From assembly GCF_003334405.1 (NCBI RefSeq), contig NZ_QOWM01000001.1: a stretch of DNA of 64,000 nucleotides; one strand, 5' to 3'. Positions 40,789-52,934 of this stretch are shown one piece after another. The stretch comes from Escherichia coli. Its GTDB lineage: Bacteria; Pseudomonadota; Gammaproteobacteria; Enterobacterales; Enterobacteriaceae. The notes beneath the pieces were generated by a model. That model saw nothing but the letters and a program-made list of their open reading frames with translations, was not told the origin of the DNA and made no database searches. The position numbers and the translations under genes are program-made. Numbering within the stretch: the first letter of the stretch is position 1; each line of letters opens with the position of its first letter.

Positions 40789-41772
<984 letters not shown>

Positions 41773-41795
41773 GCGTTTCTGATTCATTGATTAAA

Positions 41796-41823
41796 GGCCA
41801 GGCAGTAACATTACTGACTGGCC
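41796..41823. terminator. Hairpin downstream of yfeX (copy A of a duplicated 28-nt element)
   Basis: ggccaggcagtaacattactgactggcc forms a stem-loop (ccag..cagtaa / ttactg..ctgg); no clean T-run on the plus strand. Confidence 0.4.
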
Positions 41824-41827
41824 TCAG

Positions 41828-41975
41828 ATTGTTGACCAAGTGCGCGTTGTACACGCCGGATGCGGCGTGAACGCCTTATCCGGCCTACGAAATCGTGCTA
41901 ATTCAATATATTGTGGGCTCCACGTAGGCCTGATAAGCGTAGCGCATCAGGCAGTTTTGCGTTTGTCAGCACTCT
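41828..41975. repeat. REP/BIME cluster
   Basis: gccggatgcggcgtgaacgccttatccggcctac and gtaggcctgataagcgtagcgcatcaggc around an attcaatatattg spacer motif. Confidence 0.7.
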
Positions 41976-41978
41976 CAG

Positions 41979-42010
41979 ACCAGCCAGTAACATTACTGAC
42001 TGGCCTTTTT
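41979..42010. terminator. Hairpin plus T-run adjacent to the yfeW stop (copy B of the duplicated 28-nt element)
   Basis: gaccagccagtaacattactgactggcc followed by ttttt; 26 of 28 nt identical to copy A. Confidence 0.5.
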
Positions 42011-42011
42011 A

Positions 42012-43316
42012 TTACTTCTGCTTTAACGCCGCATACACCTGATCAACTACCCAACCATAAGTTGCAATCGGCAACTGACCGCTTTCGAACATATTGGGAT
42101 TCTTTTGCGGATCGGCAACCGGCGAATGTGGCTTGTTGCTTAACATCACAATCGTCATATGATTCACCGGATCGATAACGGTCACCGTTCCGGTCCAGCC
42201 AGTGTGACCGTAGGTTTGCGGGCTTGCCAGCGTGCCAAACGTCGGCGTCATGGTGGCATTACCATTCACGCGCCAGCCGAGGCCAAAAGTGGCATCTTCC
42301 TTAGAGCTGGTGGTGAACATCTTCACCGTTTCCGCATTGAACAGCTGCACATCACCATAGCCCCCGCCGTTCAGCATCGTTTGCATTAACACCGCAATAT
42401 CGCCGGTATTGGAAAACAAACCTGCGTGCCCGGAAACGCCGCCCATCGAATAAAAGGCTTTTTCATCGTGCACCTGACCCCAGAGAGTGGAGGTGCGGAT
42501 ATTCGGGAAATGGATCACGCCATCGCGGGTATTGCCGTTCAATTCCGTGGCGGCAATTTGTTGCGGTTTAAAGCCTTTCAGCAGCGGGTTAAATACCGTA
42601 TGTGTCAGGCCGAGCGGGCGATAAATCGACTCTTCAACATAGCGGTCAAGCGGCTGACCGGTAACCGACTCGACGATAAATCCAAGCAGCATATAATCGA
42701 CATCGCTGTAGATATGTTTGCTGCCGGGCTGATATTCCAGCGGCGTGCGCTTGATCATCTCCAGCGTCTGGCCTTTATCCTGGGAATATAACGCGCCCGC
42801 GACCGCTTTATTCGGGTATTGCGGATCTGCCGGGAAACCGCCGCTGTGATGCAGCAGGTCAGAAATCCGCAGGGTGTTTTTGCCTTTAATGGTGTCATTT
42901 GGACTATCGGCAAACCCCGGAATATATTTCGCAATCCGATCGTCAGGATGCAGTTTGCCTTCGCTCATCAGCTTTTGCAGGGCGAAGTTCGTGGCGTACA
43001 TTTTGGTGTTTGAGGCCAGGTCATACAGCGTCCCGGTGGTGGCTTTGACAGGCTGTTCCATCAACACGCTGCCATCGTACTTTTTCGCCGCTCCCCAGGC
43101 TTTGCGATACACAATCTGATTATCTTTAATGATCAGCAGGTTTACGCTGGGATAACCGACATCAACTTGCTGGCTAATCCAGCGATCCATCTGGTTAAGC
43201 CGTTCGACGTTAAACCCTGCTTTCTCTGGCGAGCTTTCTGTCAGAACAGGGTATTTTGCGGCGCTGACGCTACAACTAACAGCCAGCAGAGAAAGATAGA
43301 GCATTGTCCGTTTCAT
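42012..43316 (-). CDS. yfeW: Penicillin-binding protein 4B-like serine hydrolase YfeW
   Basis: Product MKRTMLYLSLLAVSCSVSAAK... with a signal peptide and an S-x-x-K motif (SNTK); start set at the internal ATG. Confidence 0.85.
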   Translation of the reverse strand: MKRTMLYLSLLAVSCSVSAAKYPVLTESSPEKAGFNVERLNQMDRWISQQVDVGYPSVNLLIIKDNQIVYRKAWGAAKKYDGSVLMEQPVKATTGTLYDLASNTKMYATNFALQKLMSEGKLHPDDRIAKYIPGFADSPNDTIKGKNTLRISDLLHHSGGFPADPQYPNKAVAGALYSQDKGQTLEMIKRTPLEYQPGSKHIYSDVDYMLLGFIVESVTGQPLDRYVEESIYRPLGLTHTVFNPLLKGFKPQQIAATELNGNTRDGVIHFPNIRTSTLWGQVHDEKAFYSMGGVSGHAGLFSNTGDIAVLMQTMLNGGGYGDVQLFNAETVKMFTTSSKEDATFGLGWRVNGNATMTPTFGTLASPQTYGHTGWTGTVTVIDPVNHMTIVMLSNKPHSPVADPQKNPNMFESGQLPIATYGWVVDQVYAALKQK

Positions 43317-52746: not shown

Positions 52747-52785
52747 GGATTAATAGCATCGGAGACTGATGACAAACGCAAAACT

Positions 52786-52884
<99 letters not shown>

Positions 52885-52934
52885 TAAACAAAGCGCACTT
52901 TTTTAACAGTTGTTGCTGCCGACAAATGCAGTAT

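Follow-up and report, generated by a model that had tools for sequence, protein, structure and literature searches.

A terminator-like hairpin duplicated on both sides of a BIME-1 element between yfeX and yfeW, and the same layout at four other sites between convergent genes

How does a dispersed intergenic repeat come to stand between two nearly identical copies of a host hairpin? The question is raised by the gap between yfeX and yfeW in a 64,000-nucleotide stretch of Escherichia coli DNA (the window; contig NZ_QOWM01000001.1 of assembly GCF_003334405.1), where two hairpins, H1 and H2, bracket a bacterial interspersed mosaic element (BIME) built from repetitive extragenic palindromic (REP) sequences. 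REP sequences, BIMEs and REPINs are the most abundant repeats in E. coli. The sequence-only reading of the window had taken the two hairpins for one ancestral bidirectional terminator, duplicated when the REP cluster was inserted or expanded. Single-hairpin alleles, a Citrobacter genome and element boundaries that lie flush with the hairpins all support that proposal. We consider it probable that a BIME-1 element integrated at a single bidirectional terminator in an Escherichia ancestor, that the whole stem-loop was duplicated in the process, and that units were later lost or amplified between the hairpins. The hairpin duplication looks like a footprint of how BIME-1 inserts, and the entry of REPs and REPINs into new sites is still called unresolved (PMC3116915; 2026 preprint 10.64898/2026.03.23.713779).

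The genes yfeX (+ strand) and yfeW (- strand) converge on a gap of 239 bp that consists of three segments lying flush against each other: H1, the element, and H2 (Table 1). The H1 and H2 cores are identical at 26 of 28 positions, as the sequence-only reading had stated, and the repeat search matches 41795-41824 to 41977-42006 at 28 of 30 positions with a spacing of 182 nt. The first copy had been placed correctly at 41796-41823; the second, placed at 41979-42006, was one base too high and occupies 41978-42005. With up to three mismatches allowed, the core sequence occurs at these two sites only within the 64 kb, against an expectation of 0.00 from shuffled sequence, which puts the resemblance far beyond chance. 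H1 has stems of 7 and 5 bp, one internal mismatch and a 4-nt loop. With G-U pairs counted, the H2 stem is perfect on the - strand; on the + strand a C.A mismatch interrupts it. Each copy forms a hairpin on both strands, in RNA folds (+ strand, H1 -21.8 and H2 -11.3 kcal/mol; - strand, H1 -19.7 and H2 -22.8 kcal/mol; z-scores from -2.7 to -6.6) and in DNA folds (-5.7 to -12.6 kcal/mol). The entire 248-nt region folds as RNA at -98.8 kcal/mol (z = -6.8).

The shoulders of the two copies differ. The claim that only the second copy carries a T-run holds for the + strand, where in the filled allele the T5 run of the yfeX terminator comes after H2 only; on the - strand a weaker run, TTTAAT, comes after H1 only. 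It begins with the AAA shoulder at 41793..41795 read on that strand, and serves as a weak U-tract for the yfeW transcript. Each copy therefore retains the outer shoulder of the original terminator. An inverted duplication was considered, a 47-nt inverted repeat having been reported at this place, and was rejected: direct alignment of H1 and H2 gives two differences and the same CA loop, while inverted alignment gives five differences. The extra 17 nt of the inverted match come from the imperfect terminal symmetry of the element itself, which is common to its paralogs.

The 154-nt segment between the hairpins is one defined repeat, a full-length BIME-1, and not a loose REP cluster. The sequence-only reading was right to see REP/BIME sequence here: a Y REP and an inverted Z1 REP lie to either side of a long linker, and their arms pair at 93%. 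We take the REPs to be of the Y and Z1 types from their consensus sequences, read alongside a published description of BIME-1. That description has BIME-1 composed of a Y REP, a long (L) linker with an integration host factor (IHF) site, and a Z1 REP (PMC3333891). The putative IHF-like site in the linker, ATTCAATATATTG, differs from WATCAANNNNTTR at one position and recurs unchanged in a second copy in the window and in all paralogs. A match of this kind is not significant on its own (51 found, 46 expected). Rfam returns only sub-threshold, REP-derived matches on the element, to naRNA4 (36 bits, gathering score 59.5) and ES036 (27 bits, gathering score 37.6).

Full-length paralogs occur at fepA-entD, cysM-yfeS, katE-chbG, ccmH-narP, lpdA-yacH, ysgA-metE and other places, and matches at the level of the REP alone number about 40 or more per genome. 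The copy at fepA-entD is 90% identical over the entire length of the element, and in E. coli genomes that lack the element at yfeX-yfeW it is this fepA-entD intergenic element that provides the best match to the whole 152-nt query. The copy at 52762-52911 of the window is 88-90% identical by local blastn; the convergent gap that holds it we take, from the K-12 gene order, to be cysM-yfeS. Other strains have a complete hairpin adjoining the element at cysM-yfeS (ATTTGTCGGCAGcaacaaCTGCCGACAAAT^CAGATTA, where ^ here and below marks a junction or cleavage point), and in the K-12-type allele of the window a deletion of about 15 nt took the right arm of the hairpin together with the left tip of the element. 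At yfeX-yfeW, homology to the paralogs begins at the first base 3' of H1 and stops at the last base 5' of H2. Since these bounds coincide with the hairpins, the duplicated unit is exactly the target hairpin.

Sites of this family were collected by a metagenome scan with the right-end motif AGTTTTGCGTTTGTCAGCACTCTCA, followed by local BLAST over 1.5 Mb of fetched DNA. Among the 14 distinct sites, five have a hairpin, the element and the same hairpin again in direct orientation: yfeX-yfeW (GGCCAG...CTGGCC, 28 nt), ysgA-metE (CGGGTGG(C/T)GTT(G/A)CCACCCG, 19 nt), katE-chbG (GGCGGCGCAATTGCGCCGCC, 20 nt), ccmH-narP (GCCCGATG...CATCGGGC, 23 nt) and lpdA-yacH (AGCGGC...GCCGCT, 19 nt). The duplications at the five sites, 19-28 nt long, each comprise one whole stem-loop; across all sites the range is 7-28 nt. 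All five lie between convergent genes, with an A-shoulder to the left of the first hairpin copy and a T-run to the right of the last. The layout is recurrent, and the reading first made at yfeX-yfeW extends to four more loci. At a sixth family site (L180) the direct repeat is 9 nt long. Across these six sites the best scores for a direct repeat range from 9 to 24, with 24 at yfeX-yfeW. In a control of 182 mismatched pairs of left and right flanks drawn from different sites, the maximum was 9 and the 99th percentile 8.2, so the similarity of H1 and H2 does not fall to the level of chance. A chance match or an assembly artefact is a negligible prospect: short palindromes are common in intergenic DNA, which is the usual caveat, but shuffled sequence yields 0.00, the control pairs score no more than 9 against 24, and the allele is present in about 1,400 complete genomes.

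The termini of the element are constant. At yfeX-yfeW they read 5'-TCAGATTGTTGAC...GTCAGCACTCTCA-3', and the consensus over the 14 sites is 5'-TCAGATTGTTGAC...GTCATCAGTCTCA-3'. This bears on a transposase-independent origin, in which the hairpin or cruciform would have been broken by a structure-specific nuclease or by a collision of replication with transcription between the convergent genes, an ectopic BIME-1 copied in as filler, and the hairpin-length overhangs filled. All five sites are palindromic terminators between convergent genes, plausible fragile sites, and duplication length tracks hairpin length (19-28 nt) as if structure set the stagger. We nevertheless regard such an origin as improbable, because the same element termini (TCAGATTG...GTCTCA) are found at nearly every site, which favours defined excision and joining over arbitrary filler, and because element ends and hairpin flanks share no microhomology.

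Three of the other loci could be compared in filled and empty form. The difference in length is 171 nt at ysgA-metE, 172 nt at lpdA-yacH and 176 nt at ccmH-narP, in each case the element plus one hairpin. The ysgA-metE site is empty, with the single hairpin CCGGGTGGTATTACCACCCGG, in every E. coli genome and filled in eight complete NCBI genomes of another taxon. The lpdA-yacH site is filled in 494 E. coli genomes, the rest, K-12 included, carrying AAAAAAGCGGCtaaccacGCCGCTTTTTTT; ccmH-narP is filled in 1,505 genomes, and the rest carry AAAAGAGGCCCGATGGtgatgCCATCGGGCTATTTTT. The two hairpin copies at ysgA-metE (L092 / L211-L218) differ by a compensatory pair, CGGGTGGC...GCCACCCG becoming CGGGTGGT...ACCACCCG, with the 8-bp stem intact in both, which suggests that the two structures are under selection.

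Alleles of yfeX-yfeW within E. coli were counted in 5,426 complete genomes. The element is present in 1,401-1,410 of them, K-12 references included, and all these copies are at least 99.6% identical. Most of the other genomes (about 74% of the total) have an allele about 182 bp shorter, a difference of one repeat period, with one hairpin and T-run and no BIME; alleles with a single hairpin and no REP therefore exist and are the majority in E. coli. The empty allele reads ...GATTAAAGGCCAGGCAGTAACATTACTGACTGGCCTTTTTATTAC..., one hairpin with both shoulders. The single hairpin (AAAGGCCAG...CTGGCCTTTTT), followed by T5 when read on the + strand and by TTTAAT on the opposite one, is a predicted bidirectional terminator. 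A more divergent E. coli haplotype has the hairpin variant GGCCAGCCAGTAACACAACTGACTGGCC, and both hairpin haplotypes occur filled and empty. The hairpin was found in 5,420 of the 5,426 genomes, in one to three places per genome and at this locus only, so that up to three hairpins per genome are seen within E. coli. That it might be a dispersed repeat or a part of the mobile unit was considered and rejected, as it is confined to this locus and the other sites have hairpin sequences of their own. A junction-spanning BLAST for two-unit E. coli alleles was uninformative, one-unit pieces having been merged into one place, but it counted 1,410 genomes with the element at this locus.

In a third class of E. 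coli allele, yfeW is internally deleted and the single hairpin remains. Many E. coli genomes, BL21 among them, lack nearly all of yfeW (pbp4B), equivalent to about 42040-43300 of the window; what is left, 87 nt annotated as a pseudogene, lies between the single hairpin and murP (L003 1760-1890 in BL21(DE3); L004 in Ecol_656). The deletion endpoints are identical with both hairpin haplotypes. REPs are known targets of insertion sequence (IS) elements, and in some strains IS1B or IS200C lies in the yfeX-yfeW BIME-1 gap, while IS621 adjoins the katE BIME (records with an IS in or beside these gaps are NZ_CP024260.1, NZ_CP163451.1 and NZ_CP157090.1).

Beyond E. coli, loci were retrieved with YfeX as query from one genome per GTDB species. 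E. whittamii has hairpin, element and hairpin, a single unit. Escherichia sp. E1V33 has two units and three hairpins. Escherichia sp. MOD1-EC7003, a draft assembly, has seven tandem 182-bp units with an eighth hairpin and T-run at the end (L011 3452-4697). The locus is thus a variable-number tandem repeat with 0, 1, 2 or 7 head-to-tail units of 182 bp. In E. albertii, H1 and the element are present, and after them a deletion extends into yfeW. Two outgroups lack the element: Citrobacter sp. R56 carries one orthologous hairpin, AAAGGCCAGTCAGTGATGTCACTGACTGGCCTTTTT, which is perfect and has both the A- and the T-shoulder, and in Salmonella arizonae the hairpin is degenerate. The terminator scanner scores the Citrobacter hairpin as terminator-like and found no match in the 64-kb window or in the E. 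coli empty allele; it misses the E. coli hairpin because the stem has an internal mismatch. No genome examined has two hairpins without a REP element between them.

Several details of these loci may be recorded. The MOD1-EC7003 units, which lie downstream of yfeX, differ from one another by a few substitutions. Upstream of yfeX, in MOD1-EC7003 and related loci, is another BIME-like cluster (L011 1371-1761) whose left half is duplicated internally, with GAATAACGCAGAGGTGCGCTTTG occurring twice in it in MOD1-EC7003. In E. albertii NBRC 107761 (L012 ~1118-1140) the right end of the element is fused to internal yfeW sequence (...GTCAGTACTCTCA^ACTTCAACATAGCGG); H2 and the T-run were lost in this deletion, as was the 3' part of yfeW. 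The divergent Escherichia SCPM-O-B-8794 (L007 3398-3560), a GTDB species representative with a YfeX protein that matches the query at 100% identity, has a degenerate BIME-1 with no hairpin and no yfeW, running directly into murP.

All units from the yfeX-yfeW locus group together in one clade and differ from the K-12 unit by 2.6-5.2%, with paralogs at least 8.6% away, which indicates a single insertion. A tree of the flank, for which 500 nt of yfeX were used, places the E. coli sequences in a single clade nested among element-bearing Escherichia, with Citrobacter sp. R56 and Salmonella arizonae, both without the element, outside. Within the E. coli clade, filled K-12 is sister to empty BL21 and T2, and B2-like empty alleles lie on another branch. 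The most economical reading is that insertion and duplication occurred in an Escherichia ancestor, an old event common to E. albertii, E. whittamii and two unclassified species, and that the unit was lost precisely at least twice within E. coli and amplified elsewhere. A recent insertion in the K-12 lineage, our first guess, is ruled out by the outgroups and the flank tree. The single-hairpin alleles of E. coli most likely do not preserve the state before insertion but arose secondarily, by precise deletion between the hairpin repeats.

That polarity lends something to the view that two separate ancestral terminators, alike or gene-converted, stood in the gap and the BIME landed between them, single-hairpin alleles being deletions: if the E. 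coli alleles are probably deletions, they alone do not prove the ancestral state. This view is very improbable all the same. The copies are 26 of 28 identical in direct orientation, asymmetric loop included, and abut the element without a spacer; Citrobacter sp. R56 has one orthologous hairpin with both shoulders; the K-12 copies keep the outer shoulder only, the signature of one terminator split in two; and the same pattern occurs at four other loci with unrelated hairpin sequences.

The arrays bear on a two-step alternative, in which BIME-1 would integrate beside a hairpin without duplicating it and a later slippage, tandem duplication or template switch would copy the hairpin across. Slippage or unequal exchange is evident at the locus, which ranges from 0 to 7 units, and the family sites with a hairpin on one side only (see below) could represent the first step. 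A tandem duplication of hairpin plus element would, however, end in the element, whereas the number of hairpins equals the number of elements plus one in all arrays here, and the arrays end in hairpin and T-run. Five independent events would be needed as well, each copying one stem-loop flush to the opposite terminus of the element. We judge this sequence of events unlikely.

Integration with duplication of the stem-loop can be laid out as a series of steps. The ancestral gap would have held one bidirectional intrinsic terminator, a GC-rich hairpin of 28 nt with an A-shoulder before it and a T-run behind. A 154-bp BIME-1 would then have integrated in an ancestor of the genus Escherichia with duplication of the entire stem-loop, giving hairpin, element and hairpin. 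The duplicated segment is the stem-loop itself, and the termini of the element do not vary; the simplest route to this outcome would be for each strand to be nicked at the 3' foot of the hairpin, so that the two nicks are staggered, either within a cruciform that has been extruded or where a fork exposes single-stranded DNA. The 5'-T ends of the element would be joined to the 3'-OH ends of the target and the two hairpin-length gaps filled in. Two 28-bp direct repeats around a quasi-palindromic element would make the locus a 182-bp variable tandem repeat, in which slippage or unequal exchange between hairpins could lose a unit precisely, as in most E. coli, or amplify it, to two or seven units. 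These later dynamics should need no special enzyme.

For the nicks themselves, the candidate enzyme is TnpA_REP, the tyrosine transposase that is associated with REP sequences (RAYT). In vitro, TnpA_REP cleaves single-stranded DNA at C^T only, with the consensus TGCC^TGAT or GGCC^TAC (Ton-Hoang et al. 2012, PMC3333891), leaving a 3'-OH and a 5'-phosphotyrosine (PMC3333891). In the empty yfeX-yfeW site the top strand has GGCC^TTTTT and the bottom strand GGCC^TTTAAT; in filled alleles the junctions are GGCC^TCAGATT and GGCC^TGAGAGT (the latter GGTC^T in K-12), and both element strands start with T (5'-TCAGATTG and 5'-TGAGAGTG). This polarity, a 3'-OH on the target and the 5' end of the element on the tyrosine, would fit an enzyme of the HUH/Y1 type, and the GGCC^T match to TnpA_REP sites at yfeX-yfeW is only suggestive. 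A C^T step is found on both strands at yfeX-yfeW and katE-chbG, and lpdA-yacH is compatible but ambiguous. The more general proposal, that BIME-1 (the E. coli REPIN) integrates through nicks on both strands at the 3' foot of a terminator hairpin, made by the domesticated transposase at C^T, with the hairpin setting the length of the duplication, is a tentative one, and we would sooner doubt it than rely on it.

Several observations weigh against parts of this account. Six further family sites have a terminator-like hairpin flush at one terminus only, and fepA-entD has no hairpin at either side; duplication is thus not obligatory, or has often been erased. The C^T step is present on one strand only at ccmH-narP and on neither at ysgA-metE. 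Any GC-closed terminator stem followed by a T-run offers C^T, which makes the motif match weak evidence, and Y1 enzymes of the IS200/IS605 type, relatives of RAYT, move one strand and make no target duplication (PMC3333891). All filled alleles examined are old, so that simultaneity of duplication and integration is only inferred. The seven-unit array comes from a draft assembly, and its copy number is possibly inexact. Finally, the hairpin copies at ccmH-narP and lpdA-yacH share stems and differ at 4-5 loop positions, which would not be expected from faithful fill-in and a short time of divergence.

The loops concerned are tgatg and ataaatc at ccmH-narP (L203, L210) and tattctg and taacaac at lpdA-yacH (L116, L209). 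The empty allele equals one copy only, the left at ccmH-narP and the right at lpdA-yacH. We read the loop differences as the mark of old duplications whose stems were kept by selection, with recent deletions arising by crossover in one stem arm; divergent metagenome variants of ccmH-narP retain the same loop difference, which supports the old age of that duplication. A burst of errors during gap filling is an alternative. Template switching as the source of the diverged loops was discarded, as by eye the loops are not reverse complements of each other.

Transcription of both genes would be affected. In K-12 the yfeX transcript is predicted to pass H1, which has no U-tract, cross both REPs and meet the weaker H2 (-11.3 kcal/mol) with its U5; the yfeW transcript would pass the perfect H2 (-22.8 kcal/mol) without a U-tract and end, if at all, at H1 with UUUAAU. 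Each gene of a filled allele would then have to terminate at the distal copy and would gain a highly structured 3' extension of 182 nt. The filled allele shifts the predicted terminators of both convergent genes 182 nt outward and adds very stable 3' structure. REPs are frequent in such places, with 78 found within 306 bidirectional terminators (10.64898/2026.03.23.713779).

Recurrent duplication of one stem-loop provides a concrete and testable model, in which DNA structure sets the stagger of the nick and for which there are a candidate enzyme and known substrates, and the four sites with both filled and empty alleles are ready-made loci for assays. It also accounts mechanistically for the known presence or absence of whole BIME-1s between strains. 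Such sites act as 182-bp tandem repeats and are possible strain markers. If the nicking proposal is true, the duplications would be the first genomic footprint of the mechanism of REPIN insertion, and would explain both the pile-up of REPs at bidirectional terminators between convergent genes and the precise loss or tandem amplification of whole BIME-1s.

Table 1. Features of the yfeX-yfeW gap and related elements in the window (positions are those of the 64,000-nt stretch).
Feature	Coordinates	Strand	Basis or detail
yfeX coding sequence (porphyrinogen peroxidase)	40873..41772	+	open reading frame list; RefSeq annotation of identical E. coli records
yfeX stop TAA	41770-41772	+	
AAA shoulder left of H1	41793..41795	.	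sequence; same shoulder in single-hairpin alleles
Hairpin copy H1, 28-nt palindrome, GGCCAGGCAGTAACATTACTGACTGGCC	41796..41823	.	sequence, repeat search, folding
BIME-1 element, 154 nt	41824..41977	+	homology to paralogs; boundaries from alignment to 14 sites
Left flank motif, 31 nt, outside REPs	41824..41854	+	conserved in paralogs
Y-type REP (GCCGGATGCGGCGTGAACGCCTTATCCGGCCTAC)	41855..41888	+	sequence; inverted repeats I5 and I2; sub-threshold Rfam naRNA4
Long (L) linker, 35 nt	41889..41923	+	IHF-like site ATTCAATATATTG at 41901-41913
Z1-type REP, inverted (GTAGGCCTGATAAGCGTAGCGCATCAGGC on + strand)	41924..41952	-	sequence; inverted repeat I2 with Y REP
Right flank motif, 25 nt (AGTTTTGCGTTTGTCAGCACTCTCA)	41953..41977	+	conserved in paralogs
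Hairpin copy H2, GACCAGCCAGTAACATTACTGACTGGCC	41978..42005	.	sequence, repeat search, folding
T5 run TTTTT, U-tract of yfeX terminator	42006..42010	+	sequence; same run after single hairpin in empty alleles
yfeW stop codon	42012-42014	-	
yfeW / pbp4B coding sequence, 434 aa, convergent with yfeX	42012..43316	-	open reading frame list; RefSeq annotation of matching records
Second full-length BIME-1 of the same family	52762..52911	-	local blastn, sequence

Comparison with known systems places the locus among several others that it resembles in part. Bacterial group II introns of class C have their insertion sites directly after intrinsic terminators, targeting the DNA stem-loop and not a sequence; unlike BIME-1 they are retroelements, have no REP content and do not duplicate the hairpin. 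Tn10 and Tn5 undergo precise excision, independent of transposase, by slippage between target duplications. Loss of the 182-bp unit likewise leaves exactly one copy of the direct repeat, and an element with inverted repeats should bring the direct repeats together; the Tn10 and Tn5 repeats, however, are 9 bp, while those at yfeX-yfeW are 28 bp, palindromic, and able to support amplification to 2-7 units as well. Bachellier and colleagues are said to have reported, in the abstract of a 1997 paper (Genetics 145:551), "excisions" of whole BIME-1s among natural isolates, and the precise unit losses proposed here agree with that. The literature read for this work held no account of hairpin-length duplications around BIME-1, or of tandem amplification of BIME-1 together with a host hairpin; Bachellier et al. 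1997 was outside this reading and may already note repeats flanking excised BIME-1s.

The element at yfeX-yfeW is like the BIME-1 (RIB/RIP) of the literature in its 154-nt composition and order, in being extragenic, dispersed and multi-copy, in its position at the 3' ends of convergent genes and in being present or absent between strains. BIME-1 has been described as single copy per locus, which is true in K-12, but Escherichia sp. E1V33 and MOD1-EC7003 carry tandem units of element plus hairpin (2 and 7). REP and BIME elements are also described as lacking target duplications and the signatures of miniature transposable elements with inverted repeats (MITEs) (PMC3184786; PMC3333891), whereas the yfeX-yfeW element is bracketed by a duplicated host hairpin. 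It differs from DDE-type MITEs in turn, since the termini TCAGATTG and TGAGACTG match at 6 of 8 positions only and the duplications vary from 7 to 28 nt instead of being fixed. The "peel and paste" elements of the IS200/IS605 type and TnpA_REP/RAYT share hairpin-recognising HUH enzymes that act on single-stranded DNA. TnpA_REP requires C^T, with GGCC^T a good site (PMC3333891), and the yfeX-yfeW junctions fit this on both strands. IS200/IS605 elements move as one strand and have no flanking direct repeats, in contrast to BIME-1 with repeats of 19-28 nt at 5 of 14 sites, and to duplicate a segment as long as a hairpin, both strands would have to be nicked or something equivalent would have to happen.

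Nearest in described behaviour are YPAL/RU-2 of Yersinia, intergenic palindromic repeats of about 168 bp which, as summarized in PMC2229807, make target duplications of 3-26 bp at targets that extend across dyad symmetries or lie beside them (De Gregorio et al. 2006 via PMC2229807). The BIME-1 duplications, 7-28 nt and usually one whole hairpin, are similar. YPAL/RU-2 belongs to another family in another genus, the summary in PMC2229807 reports no REP/RAYT link for YPAL, and the two are likened here by behaviour, not by sequence.

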